From an uncultured delta proteobacterium (GTDB taxonomy: Bacteria; Desulfobacterota; WTBG01; CAIYCZ01): a stretch of DNA of 64,000 nucleotides. Positions 1,738-53,806 of the stretch are shown here, piece by piece; position 1 is the stretch's first letter; every line of letters begins with the position of its first letter. Location of the stretch: NCBI GenBank assembly GCA_963803975.1, contig CAWDOY010000039.1:22721-86720 (forward strand). The letters are read 5' to 3'. The notes below the pieces were generated by a model, which saw only the letters and a program-made list of their open reading frames with translations, was not told the origin of the DNA and did no database searches. The position numbers were made by a program, and so were the translations under genes.

Positions 1738-3094
1738 ATGGCTAAAACATATGATGTCATAATTGTAGGAGCGGGCCCGTCGGGACTGCTTGCGGCAAAG
1801 GCCGCGGGGCAGGCCGGATTTTCTGTTGCGCTGCTGGAGCGAAAGGCTGATATCACCCGCCTGGAGCGGGCGTGCGGCCAGACCCTGGTTTCAGTAAATG
1901 ACTACTATTTTGACGATGTGGTCCACTATAACCGGAAGGGGAAGCGGATCGCGTTCATCAAGAACGGGTTTTCCTTTGCCTATGACGGGCCGGTGAAAAA
2001 CTGCGCTGCCTGGCACATTTTTTCTCCTGGCGGAAACCGCCTGCCGTTCGGCCTGCCGGAGGAAACCAGAAAAAAAGGAGATTTCGGCGCGGTGGGCATT
2101 GCCTATGATAAAGAGATACTGTTCCGCTGCCTGCTTGATGAGGTGCGGCAGGCAGGGGTGGAGGTCATTACCGGAATCGATGTCGCCGGTGTTACCCCGG
2201 CCGATGCTGGCGTCACCGTGAAGCGGCAGCGGCAAAAGCTTTGAGGCGGAATATCTCATTGCCGCTGACGGCTGCAACTCGCGCATCGCGCGGATGCTCG
2301 GGTTTAACAAGGGCCGGACGTTTTACAGCTACCTGCTGTCCAAGGGCTGGTACATGCGCAATGTGAAGGCTCCGGCCTCTGATCTTCTAATATCGAGCAT
2401 CACGCAGAAGACCATTGCCCCGGGGCTGATGTTTATCTTCCCCCGGCCCTACGCGGATGATCTTAATGTGATATTTCTTACCCTTGACCCGCGGGTCAGC
2501 CTGGACGAGGTTGCTGATTATTTTACAAAAGAAAATCCTTTCTTCTCGAAATGGTTCCAGGGCGCCGAGCGGCTGAAAGAATCTGCCTCTGCCCAGTATA
2601 TTTATTCTCCGGTGCTTGAGCCCTATTGCGACCGGGTGCTGCTTGCCGGCGATACCGGTGCCTGCCAGGAGCTGGAAAATTCCGGGGCCATGATCAGCGG
2701 CTGGAAGGCAGGGAGCGCGGTTGCCGCAGCACTGAAAGAGAACCGGGTGGGTCTGGCCTCCCAGGCTATTCCACAGTACGTAGCGTGGTGGAAGTCAACC
2801 TACATTGAGAAGTGCCCGCATGAAGCATACCTCATGAACTTCGCGCTGCCGTATGTGATGGACCGGGAAGAGGACCTTGATTATATTTTCAGCCTGGTTA
2901 AAAATCCGCTGCCGCCGTGCTGGAATCCCTATGCCGCAATAGCCCACATGGGCGGGCTGATACAGAGCCTGGTCCCAACCATACAGAAAGAGCGGCCTGA
3001 TCTTATGCCGAAGCTTGCGGCCATGTCACGCCCCATGACTGAGATTCTTAGCGTCACCACTGCAGCGTGCAGCCCGCTGCAGGATCTTGACTAA
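1738..3094 (+). CDS. geranylgeranyl reductase-family oxidoreductase, paralog 2 (frameshift near 2225)
   Basis: YDVIIVGAGPSG in ORF 1738-2244; the shifted frame continues GKSFEAEYLIAADG...LLAGDTG into ORF 2294-3094; collinear with the 353 gene. Confidence 0.8.
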
Positions 3095-3108
3095 GCCTTT
3101 CAAAATGT

Positions 3109-3149
3109 AAAGGGGGCGGTGCCATGGTAATCACACCGTCCCCTTTTTT
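3109..3149. terminator. bidirectional terminator
   Basis: aaagggggcggtg...caccgtccccttttt between convergent genes. Confidence 0.65.
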
Positions 3150-3214
3150 CTGCGCACTCCCTTATTATCTTTATTATAAACAGTCAGCTTTTCAGTAACG
3201 CCGGCAGGAAAGAA

Positions 3215-3964
3215 TTATCGTAATGCCTCAAGGTCCTGTTTCAAGAGCAGGTGCCCGGTGAACGAGGCCGGGTCACGGGCTGCCACCAGTGCTGCGTAGC
3301 TGCCCCAGATAGCGGGAGGGTCCCATCCGGAGCGGTCGATGTTCGGATTGAGGAAGGCCCAGCCTTCGCTCTCCGTGTTGTCAGGCATGAGGGCGTTTAC
3401 GGCAATTGCGTACTGCTTCAGCTCTTCAGCCAGGCCCAGGGTGAGGCGGTTTATGGCCGCCTTGGTCACGTCATAGGCAATGCCGGTAAAGGGCTGATGA
3501 TGCAGCTTCTGCGTCACCACTGAAGATATATTAATAATATGGCCCTGCTGCTGCCGCATCATGGCGGGCAGCACCGCGCGGGTGCAGAGCACAGTGCCCC
3601 GCAGGTTGACCTCCAGGATCCGGTCCCAGTGTTTTTGCGGCATTTCATGAAAGCAAGCGGGGAAATTGGTGGCCGCGTTATTGACCAGGATATCGATGCG
3701 GCCCCATTCAGCGAGCGTTTTTTCAACCATCCCGGCCACTGATGTTTCTCTGGTGACATCGGTTTTAAATGCAAGGGCGCTGCCGCCGCAACTGCGGATT
3801 TCTTCGGCTGTGGTTTCAATGCTGCCGGCTATGACCGGAAGCTCGCGAAAGGTTCTGGCCGCAACCACTACGCGCGCTCCTTCCCCGGCCAGGGCAATGG
3901 CGATGGCCTTTCCTATGCCCCGGCTGGCGCCGGTGACGATGGCGACTCTGTCATGTAATGTCAT
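3215..3964 (-). CDS. short-chain dehydrogenase/reductase (SDR)
   Basis: TGASRGIG, NNAA, YDVTK catalytic YxxxK. Confidence 0.9.
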   Translation of the reverse strand: MTLHDRVAIVTGASRGIGKAIAIALAGEGARVVVAARTFRELPVIAGSIETTAEEIRSCGGSALAFKTDVTRETSVAGMVEKTLAEWGRIDILVNNAATNFPACFHEMPQKHWDRILEVNLRGTVLCTRAVLPAMMRQQQGHIINISSVVTQKLHHQPFTGIAYDVTKAAINRLTLGLAEELKQYAIAVNALMPDNTESEGWAFLNPNIDRSGWDPPAIWGSYAALVAARDPASFTGHLLLKQDLEALR

Positions 3965-4247
3965 GGAGTTTGCTGTGAGATAGTTTTTTTTACGCTGCTG
4001 CCGGGTATTGTAAATGTATTACCGTAAGAATGCAAACAGAAGAAAAAAGGGGGCGCAGCCGGCGCCGTCTCCAACCCCTCTTCCCCGTTATCCAACTCTC
4101 CTCTTGACTACCCACTACTGCAGGGATATATGCGTATAACAGGTACGGGGGGATACCCACTGCTGCTCAAACTATTACCGCTCAGTGTCGGCGGGGAGCA
4201 ATAAATAGTACTGTCTGATGAAACGGATAAAAAAAGAGGAGGCAATC

Positions 4248-6350
4248 ATGAGCAATAATTCTGCAGCTGCTTTATTAGTCGCGGTACTGGCTATTGTTTC
4301 CGGCACCCCTGCTCATTCTGCGGGTGTGCCGGGTGAGTGCAGAAATCCTGCAGCCTGTTATCAATGCCACGAGCAGGATGCAATCAAGGATGCCGACCTC
4401 GGATGCGACCGGGGACGCTGGTCCCCGACAGCACCGATAAACATCCCGCGGGACCTTGCCACGAAAACGGTTCTCAGGGACGGGCGGGTGCTGGTAACGG
4501 GCGGGGCAATACTTCCTGATTTTACCACGGTAACAAGTGCTGAAATCTTTGATCCCGAAACCCTTTCATTCACGCTCCTGTTATCAACGCTGTCAGAACC
4601 CAAGTGGAGCCACGAAGCCCTGACCCTTGCCGACGGGAGAGTGCTTATAGCCGGGGGCCGCAACGCCCAGAGCCCCGCTGCCCCGGGAGCGCGGGTGCTG
4701 AGCAGCGCTGATCTCTTTGATCCGCAGACCAATACCTTTACGCCCACAGGATCCATGCAGGTTGCGCGCAGAGATCCCAGTCTGGTGCTCCTTGATGACG
4801 GCCGGGTACTCGTCACCGGCGGGGGACCGGGAGTTTCCATAAGCACAACCATGGGCCTGGACAGCGCTGAAATTTATGATTCCAAGACCGGCACCTTCAG
4901 GCTCCTGAGTTCAAAGATGAGTTCATTGCGCATTTTCCACCACGCGATTAAGCTGCCGGATGGAAGGGTGCTCGTGGCAGGAGGGTCACAGGGCCCGGGA
5001 TTTAACAATGCCCTCAAGACAGCCGACATCTTTGATCCCAAAACAGAAACGTTTGCGCCGGCAGGAGAGATGCATACTTCACGGTTAGTGCCTGCCGCGG
5101 TGCTCCTGCGGGACGGCCGGGTTGTGTTTGCAGGCTCGTTTAATAATCCGCCTTTCAGAATCGGAAATGAAGCAGAAGTATATGATCCGGCTGCCAATAC
5201 CTTTACCCCTGTGGAAAAAACTTTTTTCCACGGGCAGGGTGATCAATATCCCGTGCGGCTGCTGGACGGTACTGCCATGTTTCCCGGCGGCGTCAATACC
5301 CGCAGCCAGATAGCGAGCACCGTGTACCTGTACCGGCCTGAGTCCAATGATTTTGTGACAACGGACTCGGCGCTGTTCGCGCGGAAATCCTGCAAGACGG
5401 TTGTCCTTCCTGACGGCAGGCCGGTGCTCATCGGAGGTTTTGACTTTCGAAAAATCGTGGGCATCGGAGAGGTCTATACGCCTTCGGTCGTGTCGCAGGC
5501 ACGGGGGCTGCAGAACGTGATAGCCGACGCGCCGGCAGCAGCTTTCAGGCTGAGCGTTTTCAAGTACATCATGGCATACTGGGCTGACATGGCATCGAGC
5601 CTGATTGAAAAAGAGAATTACGAGCTGGCCGGCGCCATTGCAGAGAACATGATTCTAAAGCGCATCGACGGCTGTTCAGGCGGCAGTGCAGTTTTTGACT
5701 GGATCAGGGAATGCGACGCACAGATAAAAATTTACGCGCCCGCCAGGCTGCTGGTCAGAACACTCAGCCAGCTGACCGGGAAAATACAACCGCCGGCATT
5801 AAGTTCCAGCGCTGACGTTACCTCAGGCGGCATTCCCCTTGAAGTGCACTTCACCGGCACCGCAGCCGCCACCAACGGGACCATAGTGCGCTACTGGTGG
5901 GATTTCGGGGATGGCAAAAGCAGCACCGAACAGAATCCCGCGCACACGTACCAGTGTCCGGGGAGCTATGAAGCCACCTTCGGCGTAGTTGACAATAACG
6001 GCAACGGCACCCTCGACAAGGCGATCACAATCAAAGGCGACTACCCGGAGGGGAAGACCACCTCTTTTTCGTGTGATTTGCTCCCCTTTTACAAGGCCAT
6101 GGTATGCACCCAGTGCCACAACCAGAATGCCGATTCAAAAGCAGGACTTGATCTCAGCAGCTATGCCGGACTTATCAAAGGAAGCAAAAACGGCCCGGTT
6201 GTGATCCCGGGTGACCCGGACAACAGCGTGCTCGTGCAGATCACCGGCCCTCCCAGGAATCACGCGGCAGATGTCGGCGCAAAGCCCTACCCAAAAGAGA
6301 TGTGGGACCGGCAGCGGGCGTGGGTAGCGGAGGGAGCCCTGGACAATTAA
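4248..6350 (+). CDS. exported diheme c-type cytochrome with Kelch beta-propeller, PKD and planctomycete-type cytochrome c domain
   Basis: signal peptide; CYQCH; repeated LxDGRVLVxGG...AEIFDP Kelch blades; WWDFGDG..STEQNPAHTY PKD; CTQCH...GLDLSSY...PGDPDNS...WVAEGA; start set at MSNN after GAGGAGG. Confidence 0.8.
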   Translation: MSNNSAAALLVAVLAIVSGTPAHSAGVPGECRNPAACYQCHEQDAIKDADLGCDRGRWSPTAPINIPRDLATKTVLRDGRVLVTGGAILPDFTTVTSAEIFDPETLSFTLLLSTLSEPKWSHEALTLADGRVLIAGGRNAQSPAAPGARVLSSADLFDPQTNTFTPTGSMQVARRDPSLVLLDDGRVLVTGGGPGVSISTTMGLDSAEIYDSKTGTFRLLSSKMSSLRIFHHAIKLPDGRVLVAGGSQGPGFNNALKTADIFDPKTETFAPAGEMHTSRLVPAAVLLRDGRVVFAGSFNNPPFRIGNEAEVYDPAANTFTPVEKTFFHGQGDQYPVRLLDGTAMFPGGVNTRSQIASTVYLYRPESNDFVTTDSALFARKSCKTVVLPDGRPVLIGGFDFRKIVGIGEVYTPSVVSQARGLQNVIADAPAAAFRLSVFKYIMAYWADMASSLIEKENYELAGAIAENMILKRIDGCSGGSAVFDWIRECDAQIKIYAPARLLVRTLSQLTGKIQPPALSSSADVTSGGIPLEVHFTGTAAATNGTIVRYWWDFGDGKSSTEQNPAHTYQCPGSYEATFGVVDNNGNGTLDKAITIKGDYPEGKTTSFSCDLLPFYKAMVCTQCHNQNADSKAGLDLSSYAGLIKGSKNGPVVIPGDPDNSVLVQITGPPRNHAADVGAKPYPKEMWDRQRAWVAEGALDN

Positions 6351-7223: not shown

Positions 7224-8018
7224 CTATTTCCCCAACCACTTCCAATCCGCGACAGTATACAGGGGGAGCATAGGAATAAGGACCGGGGTAGTTCTGCCAT
7301 ACTCCTGATATGCGGGGTCTGATCCGTAATTCTTGTTCTGGCGCAGTTCCAGCCTGCGGGTTGAACCGAACATGACGTAAACTAAGCCGATGTATCCTGC
7401 AAGCGAAAAGGCAATCTGGAACCATCCGGATAAACAGGGCATGGATGACACAAAGACTCCGGTCCAGACAATAATTTCGCCGAAATAGTTGGGACAGCGT
7501 ACCATCTTGAAAAGTCCCCGGCTGCAAAAAGTTTTGGGGTTCTCTTTTTTCGCCCTGTTTTTCTGCGCATCGGCAACAGTCTGCAAAAGAAAGCCTATGG
7601 CTACCACGACAATGCCGGCATACAGCCACCCGGCATAAGCTTCCTGCAATCCGTTCTGCAGTCTGAAGAACACCGGCGACACCTGCATCACATACAGAAT
7701 GGAGCAGAAAATCCAGATAGGGATTTTAACAAAAAACGGAATTTTCTTAAATCCGGTTGAGGCTTCATCCAGGACCTTGCGGTACGCGACGTTTTTATAT
7801 TCACGGATAACAACAAAAATTCCAAGCCGTGCCGCGTACACGGCAACGATGGCAAGGAGAATAGCAACCGGAAGTGTAAGAGACGTCCCAAAGCCGATCA
7901 GCATGGCAACAGCCAATCCAGCAACGGAAAACGCGTATCCGATGGAAATGAAATAAACAAACTTGTAAAATCCTGCAGCGGTAATGACGGCAGCGACAGC
8001 AAGTAATACGTAAAACAT
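7224..8018 (-). CDS. DUF1295 / steroid 5-alpha-reductase-like membrane protein
   Basis: multiple TM helices; ADAQK...GLFKMVRCPNYFGEI motif. Confidence 0.85.
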   Translation of the reverse strand: MFYVLLAVAAVITAAGFYKFVYFISIGYAFSVAGLAVAMLIGFGTSLTLPVAILLAIVAVYAARLGIFVVIREYKNVAYRKVLDEASTGFKKIPFFVKIPIWIFCSILYVMQVSPVFFRLQNGLQEAYAGWLYAGIVVVAIGFLLQTVADAQKNRAKKENPKTFCSRGLFKMVRCPNYFGEIIVWTGVFVSSMPCLSGWFQIAFSLAGYIGLVYVMFGSTRRLELRQNKNYGSDPAYQEYGRTTPVLIPMLPLYTVADWKWLGK

Positions 8019-8550
8019 AACAGGTCTCCTTTATTCAAAAACAGGTTTTAGACTTGAAATGATGAAATTCAAAATATTGCAGCAGATCTTTATGTTCTAA
8101 AACTGTAGCTAATGTACCAGCAGCGAGAGTAGTGAGTCAACCATAAATTTATTGCAGATTTCTTTCCGCAAAGCAACACTGGCAAGCAAAAAAAATCATC
8201 GTACGCGTGAAATTTAACCAACAAGATCACACCTCAATATATTGATGCAGAAACAGCAGGACCATCGCTGACCCTGACGCTGGTGTGTAATGTGATTTAT
8301 TCTCTTGAATCAGTGCCATATATTAAATTACTAAATATATATGGCGCTGATTCCCCCCGTTTCCACAAGAAAATAAATCTGATCCCATTCCCCCTCCACT
8401 GGTGCCAAATGGCGCTATGAAAGTCTATCACTGATACAATGTGTCTTTGCAATAAATAAGCACGCCTATTTTTATGACATTGCATAAAGAGGGCATACTT
8501 CTATATAGTGTATTAAACAAAATTTAACACACTAAATATAGTTTTTTTTC

Positions 8551-8578
8551 TTGACAAAAGGATATTTTTAACTATATA
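8551..8578 (+). promoter_or_regulatory. possible sigma70 promoter of the ParA-CBM48 operon
   Basis: TTGACA 8551-8556, 16 nt spacer, TATATA 8573-8578; AT-rich context lowers specificity. Confidence 0.4.
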
Positions 8579-8795
8579 GGTAATTTAATATAAATAAAAA
8601 TAAGTTAATTTTATTCTGTTTTTCGCAATCTTCGTTTTTATTGTTCCCTTTATTGTTGGAAGAGAAAATTCTCTTTGAGAAGCTATATGATTTAAATGCC
8701 CGGAACAACAGAAGGCATTGAATCTATTTGCACTCTAAATAGAGACATTAAAGACAACAATATTAGTCCTGGGAAATGCCAGGAAAGGGGGTAAT

Positions 8796-9875
8796 ATGCG
8801 GAAGATAGCAATTATAAATCAAAAAGGAGGATGCGGAAAAACAACCACAGCTATAAACCTTGCTGCCTGCCTCGCTGAAAAAGATAAAAAAGTTCTACTC
8901 ATTGATTTAGATCCTCAGGCACATTCAACCATTGGTCTTCTGAAAACCAATGATGACCTTGATAAGACCATTTTCGATGTGCTGTGCTTTCCTGAAAATA
9001 TTTCCATAGATGAAACCATAATAGTGCTGGGGGAATATTTTTCTCTAATTCCTTCACATGTCATTCTCAGTGCAGCCGAGCAAAAGTTATCAGGGGTATC
9101 TGGCCGTGAGGACCGGCTCAGAAACAGCATTGCAGCACTCAATAATACATACCAGTATATACTGATTGACTGCCCGCCTTCTATCGGGCTGCTAACCTTT
9201 AATGCGCTCAAAGCATGCACTGAAGTAATTGTGCCTATTGAACCAAGCATCTATTCTCTTCACGGCCTTACCAAACTCCTGGAAACTATTGATATTATCC
9301 AGCATGAGCAAAATCATTACATTTCCATTAAAGCCCTTGCGACAATGGTAAATATGCACACATCTTTTTGCAGAGAAATTATTAACAATGTCAGCAATCA
9401 ATTTGGACCCAATCTGTATCACACGATGATTCGCTATACCACCCGACTTAAAGAAGCTGCTTCTTATGCTCGCCCTGTCTTATGCTATGATAAACATTGC
9501 TCAGGATACCAGGATTATTGCCAGTTGGCTGAGGAAGTAATAGCAGAAGAGACCGTAACGACCAGGGTCAGAAAAGATAGTATGAAGGCACAGCACGTTA
9601 GCCCCAGGAAAGTTGAAAATGGAGTAATATTTACTTTAAACGCCCCCCTTAATGCACAAGTGCTTCTTGTGGGTGATTTTAATGCCTGGTCTGCAGAGCA
9701 CGGCGAAATGACCTATGTTCCGGAGGAACAGGTGTGGAAGCGGTTTGTTTCACTTCCTCCAGGGAAATATCACTATAAATTCATTGTGAATGGTGAATGG
9801 CTTTTTGACCCGGCAAATCCTCATGAAGGAGAGAATGCTTTTGGTGGCAAGAACTCAGTCATACAAGTCAACTGA
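8796..9875 (+). CDS. ParA/Soj-family ATPase fused to a C-terminal CBM48 (AMPK-beta-like glycogen-binding) domain
   Basis: KGGCGKTT deviant Walker A, DLDPQ, DCPP; C-terminal [10 protein letters not shown]...[21 protein letters not shown]...GGKNS in one uninterrupted ORF. Confidence 0.9.
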
Positions 9876-9902
9876 TTTCACGGAAAATCAGGAGGAAAGA
9901 AC

Positions 9903-10262
9903 ATGTTTAAGATAAAAAAGACCGCCAAAGTTAACAATGAAGCACAAAAAATTAGCGGCATAAAGAAGGAATACCTTGCGAGCGTAAACATGTGCAAGGT
10001 AACTTTCACGCTGCCAAACAGTGCTGCTCCTGATTCAAAGAGCGTTCATCTTGTTGGAGAGTTTAATAATTGGGATATAAACGCTCATCAGATGAAACGA
10101 TCAAAGAATGGAGAGTATACTATCACTCTCAAAATTGCGCCGGGAAAGGACTATGAATTTCGTTATCTCATCGATCAATCTAAATGGGAAAACGACTATC
10201 ATGCTGATAAATATGTGAGAAGTCCCTTTGGAGATAGTGATAATTCAATTGTTACCGTTTGA
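9903..10262 (+). CDS. stand-alone CBM48 / isoamylase early-set glycogen-binding protein
   Basis: CKVTF...VHLVGEFNNW...YEFRYLID..WEND..AD...DNS; AGGAGG RBS. Confidence 0.85.
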   Translation: MFKIKKTAKVNNEAQKISGIKKEYLASVNMCKVTFTLPNSAAPDSKSVHLVGEFNNWDINAHQMKRSKNGEYTITLKIAPGKDYEFRYLIDQSKWENDYHADKYVRSPFGDSDNSIVTV

Positions 10263-10496
10263 AAACTTTTGTTTGCTGATAAAGTCATACGCATTGCACC
10301 GAAGTTGAAGAAAAAAAAAGGGGGGGGTCAGCACCGAGAAATAAATTAATCTGTTTCATTTCAGTGTAGATTTGAAAATCAGCCATTGTCCGATGGAGTT
10401 AAAACCATATTTCAGAAACTGCCAGTTCAAATCCAAATTGCTATAAATTAGATTGCAGATGGCTGCTCTAACAACTGTTTTGAAACAGAACCGACG

Positions 10497-11827
10497 TTAC
10501 ATTGTTAAAAAATTCGGAAAACCCGATCTGACCCGCCGTTCCATATCATCCTCCCGGTTCTCGCGCAGCTTGATAAGCTTTTCCAGAATCCCCGGCCGTT
10601 CATCGCTTATGGTACTCATCAGCTCTGCATAGGTCCTGCCGATGAGCCTCACCATTTCAATAAATTCCATGGTCTGGGGAAGCTTCCTGCCGGGAAGCTC
10701 GGCAAGATAGTCAAGCTCTTCCGGGCTCAGGTAGTCCTGGAAATCAAGCGCGCTGGGAGTGGCTGCGCCGTGGGGTTTATAAAAATAGCGCTCATACCAC
10801 TCAAGATAGCTTCTCAATCCGCGCTCATTACGATTGCCTTCATTAAGCGCAATGGCTGCAGCCTGCCCGGCCATCCATCCGCAGCTGAGGGCCCCCACGT
10901 TGCTGATCTCCCGGCGCCAGCACGCATCGCCGATCAGCAGCACATTATCCTTATACGGCCGCTCTATGGGGCTGAACACATTTATCACGCAGGATGTTGC
11001 GTGAAGCAGCTTTGACTGTTTGAACCAGGAAGAGAACGTGGGATCTTTATGGAACAGGTACTGTATCAGCTCTGCGGGGGCTTTATCCCTGCGGTAGGTG
11101 AGCGCATAGACGTGGTAGTGGTTTGTCTCCGCTGCGGGAAGCATCGAAAAGAGCCCCTCCGGGGTTATCATAAAAATGAAACCTTCGGCATCGGGACAGT
11201 TGAGGCCTTCAACCTCCCAGGATGTATCGCAGGAAGTGCCGAAGAACCGGCGCCCTTCATTAAAGCCCCAGATTGCGGGCAATGCGCGAGTTGATGCCGT
11301 CAGCAGCAATTAAAAAACTGCCCTCAAAAAAATTCCCGCCGCCCTCAACCAGAACTCCCTGAGGTGTTTTCCGTACTGACGTGATATTCGTGTCGGGATA
11401 TATCTCCACCGCGTATTTTCCAAGATTCCTCCAGGATGCCGCGCAGCAGCAGCTCTTTGCTGGTGGCTACACCGGTGCGGTTTTTCAGCGGGTCTTTTTT
11501 CAGTTCGGCAAAATCCCCCAGCTCCAGCTTTTTGCCGCCCGGAGAATATATCTGGTAGCCGTATATATTCTGATAGGGCCCGGCATAGGGGATGGTGAAC
11601 CCGGTAACCGGAAAGGCAAATGAATGTTGTTCATCGTGGAATGTTGCGCTTTGCCCGAAGGTATAATGGTTGACCCCGATCACCCCGCCGCAGGAGCGGT
11701 GAATCTTCGGGATGTCGGCTTTGCGGTCCAGCAAGGCAACCTTCAGCCCGTTTTCCCCTGCAGCCCGCGCTGCCATAAGCCCTGCCGGGCCCGCACCGAC
11801 TATTATCACGTCGTATTTTTTGGGCAT
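10497..11827 (-). CDS. geranylgeranyl reductase-family oxidoreductase, paralog 3 (frameshifts around 11300-11420)
   Basis: YDVIIVGAGPAG N-half plus DNVLLIGDA C-half ending GFPN, like the 353 gene. Confidence 0.75.
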
Positions 11828-11917
11828 AGAATTTTCCCCTGCTGCTGTATTCTTTGTAAAAGGCATTTTAATGCCGGAAGAGAGAGCCGGCCCGACCGGG
11901 AGATGAAAAACAAGTCT

Positions 11918-53046: not shown

Positions 53047-53806
53047 TTATCTGATTGCCACGCTATTGCGCAGCGTTCCAATCCCCTCAATCCTCACCTC
53101 GACCACATCCCCGACCTGCATCGGCCCGATTCCTTCAGGCGTACCGGTGGCAATCACATCTCCGGGCAGCAGGGTCATAACCCGCGATATAAACGAGACC
53201 AGAGCAGGTCACCGGAAAGATGAGGTCGCGGGTTGAGGCTGACTGTTTTTTTTCTCTGTTTAAGAATGTTTCAATGAGCACATCCGACGGGTCAAACGCT
53301 GTTTCAATAAAAGGCCCCAGCGGCGCAAAGGTGTCAAAGCCCTTGGCGCGGGTCCACTGCCGGTCTTTTTTCTGCAGGTCGCGGGCAGTGACATCATTAA
53401 CGCAGGTATAGCCAAGGATATAGTCTGAAGCCTGCTCAACAGTAACAGACTGACAGTGCCTGCCGATCACAACCCCAAGTTCCCCTTCATAATCAACCCG
53501 TTTTGACATGGCGGGATAGATAATCTTTTCTTCCGGGCCGATGACTGCCGTGGACGGCTTCAGAAAGAGTATCGGCTCTTCCGGCAGTTCCATTTTAACT
53601 TCTGCCGCATGGGTGCGGTAATTGAGCCCCACGGCAACTATTTTTGAAGGAGCGCAGGGGGCGAGAACCGTAAGCGTGTTCAAAGGGAATCTGACATCAA
53701 GAACCTGATAGGTGCCAAAGATGTCCCCGGCAATTTCCTGCACCGCGTCTCCGGAAACTGCGCCGTAGAATATTTTATGGTCTTTTACAAACCGGCCTAA
53801 TTTCAC
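53047..53806 (-). CDS. fumarylacetoacetate hydrolase-family protein (frameshift near 53205)
   Basis: [30 protein letters not shown]; shifted frame [13 protein letters not shown]. Confidence 0.9.

Follow-up and report, generated by a model that had tools for sequence, protein, structure and literature searches.

ParA/MinD ATPases are the main known route by which large objects are placed in bacterial cells, and the list of their described cargoes is short. We examined a 64,000-nucleotide (nt) stretch of DNA from an uncultured delta proteobacterium (GCA_963803975.1, contig CAWDOY010000039.1; hereafter the window), in which one gene joins a ParA/Soj-type ATPase to a C-terminal carbohydrate-binding module (CBM) of family CBM48 and is followed closely by a gene for a small stand-alone CBM48 protein, and we ask how this pair compares with the described positioning systems. 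McdAB positions carboxysomes, and this matters for the equal inheritance of a metabolic inclusion (excerpts of PMC6328274 and PMC12139897). PomXYZ of Myxococcus combines a ParA/MinD ATPase with two activating proteins and uses a short N-terminal activation peptide (excerpts of 10.1101/2020.12.14.422651 and 10.1101/2025.12.01.691545). Among storage polymers, granules of polyhydroxybutyrate (PHB) are attached to the nucleoid by PhaM (excerpt of PMC3556143), and the spacing of polyphosphate granules is affected by AlgP, a histone H1-like protein (excerpt of PMC13052382). The old pole is the preferred site of glycogen accumulation in E. coli, and this accumulation causes asymmetry of both the nucleoid position and the division (excerpt of PMC12706056), which provides a clear biological reason for a glycogen-positioning system. 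A full-text literature search, with subscription journals and supplements largely outside its scope, returned no published ParA-CBM48 protein or active glycogen positioning system, in keeping with an earlier, sequence-only reading of this DNA that knew of no characterised system of the kind; the word glycogen is absent from two recent field reviews and a multi-cargo study (PMC11407121, PMC10241942, PMC13052382).

The ParA-CBM48 fusion and its relatives

The 359-amino-acid (aa) product matches the Pfam families AAA_31 at residues 1-177 (E 1e-54, 185.6 bits) and CbiA at residues 4-228 (E 8.4e-21), with CBP_BcsQ also among the matches (E 2.6e-09); against the NCBIfam equivalog NF041546 (ParA_partition) it scores 106.3 bits, under the cut-off of 180. 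The closest solved relative of the ATPase domain (E 1.6e-47) is the chromosomal ParA of M. xanthus, PDB 8RAY (PMC12462528). At the C-terminus, AMPK1_CBM matches residues 288-359 (E 2.6e-12, 47.2 bits against a cut-off of 26.8) and CBM_48 matches residues 274-335 (31.8 bits against 22.4), with weak side matches to CBM_20 and a pullulanase X25 domain. An AlphaFold2 model (mean predicted local distance difference test, pLDDT, of 83.5) has two folded domains with a helix between them and a low-confidence linker at residues 260-267. The sequence-only reading had seen one open reading frame (ORF) joining an intact ParA/Soj ATPase through a short linker to a CBM48, and the Pfam matches agree with this, the linker being about 20 residues long; the translation also contains the string DCPP. 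This architecture is more than a chance match, because both CBM scores lie above the curated cut-offs and because AAA_31 (PF13614) and AMPK1_CBM (PF16561) occur together in all of the best 120 database clusters, at identities down to 44%; the joint occurrence of the two domains first seen in a single protein is thus a property of its homologues.

The proteins in these clusters are mostly 353-394 aa long (three are shorter and one has 420 aa), homologues at 80-96% identity stay full length, and source names are 'AAA family ATPase', 'chromosome partitioning protein' and, once, BcsQ. Family members come from anaerobic sediment bacteria, as metagenome-assembled genomes of Desulfobacterota type. 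With full-length and contig-cut matches included, the fusion is present in 13/41 related genomes, distributed as 3/4 in the window's own family (f1, own genome counted), 10/10 in family f4, 0/17 in f2 and 0/8 in f3, and of 401 genomes sampled evenly across the phylum, 11 from six families have it. A back-translated pattern search of genome contigs with the fusion alone recovered one true fusion (L006) and seven plain ParA loci of Firmicutes; such patterns are too specific, and the counts given here rest on genome searches instead. Among 72,556 plasmids, no record spans the junction and CBM (query residues 201-359, >=80% coverage). The eight listed best plasmid matches align to the ParA domain only, at <=40% identity and none past residue 244, and with the full-length query two of at least 5000 records are reported with >=80% coverage. 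We rejected the possibility of a plasmid partition gene, as no plasmid record covers junction plus CBM. In one relative (G003; locus L015/L040, G003:C38 ~2291-3372) residues 1-323 of the fusion are in one frame and residues 317-358 in another, the break near the end of the CBM being a frameshift or a sequencing error.

Residue conservation was counted in an alignment of 43 fusions. The deviant Walker A motif NQKGGCGKT, with its signature lysine, is invariant, as are K10, K15, T16, D37 and D39 (Walker A') and D125 (Walker B), each present in 43/43. Residue 188 pairs with an Arg of 8RAY and is presumably equivalent to a non-specific DNA-binding site of B. subtilis Soj; it is Arg in 41 of the fusions and His only in the window protein and in P0001, which is 96% identical to it, such that the window protein carries His188 in place of a basic residue at this Soj R189-type position. 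At residue 217, the Arg of TTRL, 23 fusions have R, 19 have K and one has G (R/K in 42/43), and residue 219 is K or R throughout. The by-eye alignment of the sequence-only reading, which kept the R218 equivalent in TTRL and placed His at the R189 equivalent, was therefore correct at both positions. Judged by these motifs, the ATPase domain looks active, and the basic residues at the Soj-type DNA-binding positions are kept in the family.

The fusion CBM aligns to the AMPK beta-1 CBM chains (1Z0N/4QFG, E 3.7e-07), with W298, K328, W335 and N353 falling on matching AMPK beta-1 residues that we take to be sugar contacts. W298, W335 and G350 are present in all 43 fusions, and K328 and N353 in 40 each, the remaining three having R and D, respectively. 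The module thus seems to keep the AMPK-type sugar-binding positions and is predicted to bind glycogen.

The same organism also encodes a plain ParA paralogue of 260 aa (C47:145093-145848; locus L002 1474-2256, minus strand), which shares 51% identity, and the Walker A KGGCGKT, with the ATPase domain of the fusion. This paralogue is present in genomes G000 and G001 and in family f2, which is without the fusion. In a tree of ParA domains the plain paralogues form one clade (100/100) beside the fusions; the deep branches are unresolved, and the tree leaves the number of fusion origins undecided. The gene for the paralogue has lgt and lspA-like neighbours, and a 112-aa acidic ORF overlaps it.

The second CBM48 protein noted in the sequence-only reading is encoded 27 nt beyond the fusion gene (9876-9902) and is confirmed by a CBM_48 match over the Pfam cut-off (residues 42-102 of 119, 36.2 bits against 22.4), together with AMPK1_CBM at 27.5 bits against 26.8. 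It is the only other AMPK1_CBM match in its genome, and W57, R87, W95 and N114 lie at the sugar-contact positions when aligned by eye. Proteins of this kind form a family of at least 1708 clusters (E <= 1e-5), in which the typical member of 130-146 aa begins with a low-complexity tail rich in Lys, Ala, Thr and Pro, followed by a GIKKEY box and the CBM; the tail of the window member is shorter than the family norm, with about 30 residues ahead of its CBM48 module. Strong orthologues (E 1e-30 to 1e-43) are found in 11/17 genomes of the fusion-free family f2 and in 0/3 of the other genomes of the window's family, and copies beside a GH57 cluster in f4 are more distant (E ~1e-15 to 1e-17). On these counts we rejected the small CBM48 protein as a dedicated partner of the fusion. 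Because its distribution is wide and takes in many genomes without the fusion, it seems to be a general glycogen-associated protein, yet one that lies near the fusion in f4 and adjacent to it here. In five other members (P0142, P0164, P0190, P0205 and P0232) a small CBM48 follows a domain of RNA polymerase omega (RpoZ, PF01192). Such an arrangement is either a real fusion or a read-through gene call, and it would link RNA polymerase, or merely a neighbouring gene, to a glycogen-binding module.

Alpha-glucan neighbourhoods and candidate partners

The gene neighbourhoods of relatives in three families back the link to alpha-glucan metabolism that had been proposed from the window. In G026 (f4) the order is FAA hydrolase, fusion, a gene for a 316-aa ParA-like protein and a gene for a 188-aa protein, and the opposite strand carries genes for a 97-aa CBM48 protein, a GH57 branching enzyme (GH57 + BE_C), an unknown protein, a DUF4912 protein, a second GH57 protein and a GT4/GT5 synthase-like protein. 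The operon of G028, also in f4, adjoins a small CBM48 gene and the same DUF4912 and GT4-GT5 synthase-like genes. In G082 (f48) it lies directly 3' of four same-strand genes, coding for a 1440-aa glycogen-synthase/phosphorylase fusion, a GH57 protein, a GT5-like synthase and an amylo-1,6-glucosidase, and in G183 (f78) a GH13 GlgB gene is found one gene past the operon. The module is thus placed beside alpha-glucan genes of differing kinds in three families, and it is on these relatives that the glycogen link rests. The 1440-aa ORF of G082 (locus L050 10366-14691) itself consists of a eukaryote/archaeal-type glycogen synthase (PF05693), DUF3417 and an alpha-glucan phosphorylase, with synthesis and breakdown joined in one polypeptide.

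Pfam searches found no ParB domain and no glucan enzyme among the window neighbours of the fusion, as the sequence-only reading had stated; this holds for the window only, as alpha-glucan genes adjoin the fusion in relatives. The parB gene of the organism adjoins soj on contig C14. Elsewhere in the genome glgA and glgC score above curated cut-offs, and genes for GlgB, an alpha-glucan phosphorylase and GH57 proteins are present, a gene content with which the organism can be expected to make glycogen. The glgA, glgC, glgB, GH57 and phosphorylase genes lie on C3, C7, C2, C51 and C42, and none is on C39, the contig of the window. One of them, a GH57 branching enzyme gene beside a DUF4912 gene (C51:27548-29056; locus L056 7543-9129), is broken over three frames. 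Co-occurrence with glg genes, put forward earlier as a check, is seen in that 10/11 fusion genomes of the phylum sample have glgA, but with a background of 285/401 (71%) it discriminates poorly; the sole exception, G082, has other synthase genes beside the operon.

On the 3' side of the fusion, families f4, f48 and f75 have a gene for a 280-336-aa MinD/ParA-fold protein whose Pfam matches begin at profile positions 14-18, and none of nine aligned downstream proteins has KGGxGK[ST] at the expected P-loop position. This protein looks like a Walker-A-less pseudo-ATPase, which we refer to as pseudo-ParA. At about residues 5-20 it carries the motif K-x-GRGLE-[DE]-x-SHLFLS, for which a regular-expression scan gives one match directly 3' of the fusion in 12 loci and, in the window's own genome, a single occurrence, as a variant, on contig C9. 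The motif is similar to the N-terminus of the organism's own ParB (KALGRGLEALIP), and an unstructured N-terminal ParA-activating motif with basic and aliphatic residues has been described for ParB (PMC12462528). In G183 the gene 3' of the fusion does not code for a pseudo-ParA but for a 298-aa protein in which a helix-turn-helix (HTH) and a coiled coil are combined with a hydrophobic C-terminal segment, and this protein has the same N-terminal motif. The presence of the motif on two unrelated scaffolds at one operon position is the strongest hint that the N-terminal peptide is the part of importance.

Full-length pseudo-ParA is encoded in 9/11 fusion-positive genomes of the 401-genome phylum sample; in the 390 fusion-negative genomes none was found at E <= 1e-38, and six other matches are without the N-terminal part. 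Among relatives it is present in 4/4 genomes of f1 and 10/10 of f4, with partial generic matches only elsewhere, and since these genomes are kin the counts are not independent. The sister species G001 (91% complete, 610 contigs) has pseudo-ParA, and the fusion was not found in it. A protein-atlas search with pseudo-ParA returned generic MinD/ParA clusters only, and a complex prediction with two copies of the ParA domain, two ATP and pseudo-ParA residues 1-40 (score 0.19, mark 0.32, no controls) speaks neither for nor against an interaction.

A third gene, 3' of pseudo-ParA in most relatives, codes for a protein of about 190 aa (188 aa in G026) that has no Pfam match and only 21 representatives at E <= 0.001 among 1.84 billion proteins. 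Its model (pLDDT 82) is most similar in Foldseek to the NucS/EndoMS structures 2VLD, 5GKJ and 5GKE (E 2.8e-4 to 6.9e-4), at template modelling (TM) scores of only 0.31-0.41, and we refer to it as NucS-like. An alignment of 20 sequences has no invariant or catalytic column, and a C-terminal LT-x-EEI-x-x-FL motif is conserved. The ATPase had been described as an orphan, and this is not upheld, since most relatives encode pseudo-ParA with its ParB-like peptide and the NucS-like protein directly 3' of the fusion; in the window's own genome both genes are intact and lie together on C9, with native GC contents of 0.53 and 0.51.

The window locus and its island

Features of the locus are collected in Table 1. 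The fusion gene is preceded by a purine-rich Shine-Dalgarno sequence, AAAGGGGG, ending 5 nt 5' of the ATG, and the 119-aa gene by AGGAGG, 7 nt 5' of its ATG. A scan for promoters and terminators was uninformative (promoter-like sites: 8, with 7.7 +/- 2.6 expected; terminator-like sites: 5, with 2.3 +/- 1.7 expected), and three Rfam matches in 7900-10700 (E 0.28-0.66) are far under gathering scores and were taken as chance.

Table 1. Coordinates of the ParA-CBM48 locus within the window
Feature	Position	Strand	Basis
ParA-CBM48 fusion gene	8796..9875	+	359 aa, ATG start; Pfam AAA_31, CbiA, AMPK1_CBM, CBM_48; AlphaFold2 two domains
ParA/Soj ATPase domain, ~residues 1-250	8796..9545	+	deviant Walker A KGGCGKT, D37/D39, Walker B D125
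Helix and flexible linker, ~residues 251-272	9546..9611	+	pLDDT <50 at residues 260-267; variable in fusion alignment
C-terminal CBM48/AMPK1_CBM module, ~residues 273-359	9612..9872	+	Pfam; AMPK beta-1 CBM alignment
Stand-alone CBM48 protein, 119 aa	9903..10262	+	ORF; Pfam CBM_48, AMPK1_CBM
Lysine-rich N-terminal tail of 119-aa protein	9903-9968	+	7 Lys in residues 1-22; CBM48 fold after
AT-rich non-coding stretch 5' of fusion gene	8019..8795	.	GC 0.34; holds multi-copy repeat ~8099-8395
Intergenic stretch 3' of pair	10263..10496	.	short repeat ~10377-10439
Island without match at syntenic site in sister species G001	8200..10381	.	G001 flank comparison

The locus was described earlier as AT-richer than its flanks, and by GC content this is so: 500-nt windows from 8001 to 10500 have values of 0.32-0.43 against 0.45-0.58 in the flanks, and the fusion gene itself has 0.42 against 0.535 at 1-6 kb distance, a difference of 0.115. 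As a property of the system it does not hold. At 12 other loci the fusion gene differs from its own flanks by -0.05 to +0.03, and we rejected AT-richness as a feature of the gene family in favour of a local island. In the sister species G001 the left flank (contig C261) matches the window up to 8199 and the right flank (contig C9 of G001) from 10382; past one break point G001 carries a CoA-transferase-like gene, and past the other a small HTH gene together with a gene for a secreted protein. Elsewhere in the window's own genome the repeat at 8099-8395 is matched 11 times and that at ~10377-10439 twice, and G001 has many matches to the first and several to the second. Because the island is absent in G001 and is associated with multi-copy repeats, and because the fusion gene has a GC content 0.115 under that of its flanks, the pair appears to be a recent acquisition, perhaps from a relative of lower GC content; one genome of the window's family, G003, has a GC content of about 0.40. 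One DNA-run contig and one RNA-library contig join 8060 to 8333 and omit 8061-8332 (272 nt), as expected for a small mobile insertion of ~270-300 nt, resembling a miniature inverted-repeat transposable element (MITE), that lies 5' of the fusion here and is absent in other populations.

Runs from at least 13 studies of freshwater and sediment samples contain near-identical DNA. For two studies, short contigs from RNA libraries contain pieces of both genes (word shares 0.06-0.09); these contigs cannot show strand, level or absence of DNA carry-over, the parts that they do not cover are uninformative, and they are at most a weak sign of expression.

The neighbours of the pair in the window code for a DUF1295 protein, a 131-aa unknown protein, a Kelch/PKD protein, a frameshifted FAD oxidoreductase and a methyltransferase. 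The Kelch/PKD protein (4218-6350, + strand) is a secreted-looking protein of 710 aa that has a PSCyt1 (Planctomycete cytochrome c) domain in addition to its Kelch repeats and PKD domain. In the region 10497-11866 (- strand), two ORFs, 10497-11309 and 11345-11866, correspond to one intact 442-aa FAD-dependent oxidoreductase in G001 and are frameshifted or mis-assembled here, and a homologue of FAA hydrolase at ~53059-53791 (minus strand) also has a frame break. These breaks reflect either indel errors of the assembly or several decaying genes.

Possible roles and comparison with described systems

A plausible role for the fusion is that of an ATP-switched tether or positioning system connecting alpha-glucan granules to the nucleoid, a proposal to which we give about even chances. 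It builds on the architecture, conservation, motif integrity, gene neighbourhood and phyletic co-occurrence seen in the analysis, from which we infer binding to glycogen and to DNA, a stimulating effect of the peptide and the outcome for the cell. The 359-aa protein would be a nucleoid-type ParA carrying its own cargo adaptor, with the C-terminal CBM48 anchoring the ATPase on alpha-glucan (glycogen) granules. ATP-driven dimerisation of ParA would lead to non-specific DNA binding, and granules reversibly attached to the nucleoid would then be spaced and shared between daughters, not gathered at a pole. Hydrolysis and release would probably be triggered by the ParB-like peptide of pseudo-ParA or, in one lineage, of the HTH/coiled-coil protein; for the organism studied here the source of the peptide would be the pseudo-ParA on C9, beside its NucS-like companion. 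The 119-aa CBM48 protein could be a second granule-bound protein with a lysine-rich tail that binds DNA, or, equally possible, a tail that stimulates the ATPase on the cargo. Because the ATPase itself would be on the cargo, the inverse of ParABS and McdAB, the cargo-fused protein may act more as a switchable, ATP-gated tether than as a gradient-forming positioner. We hold as possible, although somewhat doubtful, the view that the whole constitutes a polysaccharide-cargo (glycogen) ParA nucleoid system with an inverted layout, in which the ParB-like peptide is portable and the NucS-like and lysine-tailed CBM48 proteins serve as granule/DNA adaptors.

Several points weigh against a granule tether or positioner. 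In the known ratchets, ParABS and McdAB, the activator is on the cargo and the ATPase is not. The window copy may bind DNA poorly, because it has His188 where 41/43 fusions have Arg, and the sister species lacks the AT-rich island on which it is found. Adjacent alpha-glucan enzymes are seen in only four Pfam-checked loci of three families, and there are none at the window or in G003, G345, G152, G351 and G243; the glgA co-occurrence is consistent with a glycogen role, weakly. Small CBM48 proteins are common in genomes without the fusion. As seen in G001, pseudo-ParA can occur without the fusion, and this partner might serve the plain ParA paralogue, and the assignment of the third gene product rests on a weak, model-based NucS fold match with no conserved catalytic column.

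An unlikely alternative is that glycogen acts as a sensor or sink, the CBM48 sequestering or allosterically tuning a ParA whose cargo is the division site, the chromosome or a protein cluster, such that the carbon-storage state would feed into cell organisation. The AMPK beta CBM couples a kinase to glycogen, and the CBM here is of AMPK1_CBM type. The clade of plain paralogues beside the fusions (51% identity in this genome) indicates that the ATPase lineage lives without a CBM, pseudo-ParA persists in G001, in which the fusion was not found, and the partner set of pseudo-ATPase and NucS-like protein, or the HTH protein in G183, is without an evident glycogen link. However, the repeated adjacency to structural glycogen genes and the presence of a second granule-binding protein fit a cargo role more simply, and the loci examined share no other candidate for a cargo gene around the operon. 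The same adjacency to synthase, branching and debranching genes in three families would also suit an enzyme-organising scaffold comparable to BcsQ, a ParA/MinD-family protein for cellulose synthase, with the ATPase gathering or placing glycogen enzymes, either on the granule or at some site in the cell, and making no use of the nucleoid. The CBP_BcsQ match, the one homologue named BcsQ and the loss of the conserved Arg188 in the window copy are in line with this, but the best structural relatives are DNA-binding chromosomal ParA/Soj proteins and not BcsQ, the Soj-type basic positions are conserved family-wide, and a ParB-like activator peptide suits a ParA-type cycle; we judge a scaffold of this type quite improbable.

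Slightly less probable still, and compatible with the other readings, is that the window pair is a recently transferred and possibly decaying passenger with impaired DNA binding and unlinked partners, of little function in this genome even where the family works in others. Its low GC content relative to the 12 other loci, the absence of the island from the syntenic site of G001 with multi-copy repeats on its flanks, the restriction of His188 to the window protein and P0001, and the frameshifts in several genes of the assembly could all be explained in this way. Points against it are two intact ORFs that have strong ribosome-binding sites, the full length of homologues at 80-96% identity, the recurrence of near-identical DNA across at least 13 freshwater and sediment studies, RNA-library contigs holding pieces of both genes, and the intact pseudo-ParA and NucS-like genes on C9. 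Finally, CBM48 and early-set folds are versatile, and the weak side matches to CBM_20 and pullulanase X25 could be taken to mean that the module binds another glycan or mediates protein-protein contacts. With the aligned sugar-contact positions kept in 40-43 of 43 fusions and with neighbours that are alpha-1,4/alpha-1,6-glucan enzymes, we consider a ligand other than glycogen highly improbable, and the least probable of these alternatives.

If the proposed tether or positioner is correct, bacteria would have active control over the spacing and inheritance of their carbon stores, which gather passively at the old pole in E. coli, and the fusion would be the first ParA with a built-in cargo adaptor. 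The fusion family makes the question of active glycogen positioning in bacteria directly testable. The pseudo-ATPase bearing a ParB-like activator peptide offers a natural case that bears on the evolution of specificity between ATPases and their partners, and carbon storage in anaerobic sediment bacteria affects survival under fluctuating supply.

The resemblance to described systems is partial in each case. McdAB, like the fusion system, has a ParA-type ATPase acting on a non-DNA cytoplasmic cargo, and a partner with a short N-terminal activating region would be expected in both. The cargo of McdAB is a protein shell, whereas that proposed here is a polysaccharide; McdAB binds its cargo via the partner, whereas the fusion has the cargo module on the ATPase itself, and its candidate partner is a pseudo-ATPase that bears a ParB-like peptide, together with the NucS-like protein. 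Neither a McdB-type gene nor a carboxysome or bacterial microcompartment (BMC) locus is present in the window or in the related loci examined, and the likeness is in mode of action only. ParABS shares with the fusion the deviant Walker A, Walker A' and Walker B motifs and the basic DNA-binding positions, and the candidate peptide resembles the ParB N-terminus, but ParB/parS are not adjacent to the fusion, the fusion has a C-terminal CBM48, and a separate soj-parB pair is located on C14. PomXYZ is similar in having a nucleoid-bound ParA-like ATPase with more than one partner and a short N-terminal activation peptide, although its cargo is a protein cluster at the division site, its partners are unrelated and it has no CBM.

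For the small CBM48 protein the nearest parallels are PhaM and AlgP, as a granule-binding part and a lysine-rich, histone-like tail could tie a storage polymer to DNA. The PhaM tail is also lysine-rich. The polymer and the binding domain are different, the tail is N-terminal in the CBM48 protein, and there is no sequence relationship; unlike PhaM and AlgP, the fusion system includes an ATPase, such that attachment could be switched. The AMPK beta CBM and the plant proteins SEX4 and LSF1 share with the fusion the CBM48/AMPK1_CBM fold, with the aligned Trp, Lys, Trp and Asn kept, and the principle of a non-hydrolytic protein targeted to or regulated by alpha-glucan, but the module of the fusion is carried on a bacterial P-loop ATPase rather than on a kinase scaffold, as in AMPK, or on a phosphatase. 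Within the ParA/MinD cargo systems, what would be new here is the class of cargo, glycogen, together with the unusual architecture in which the ATPase carries its own cargo-binding module.

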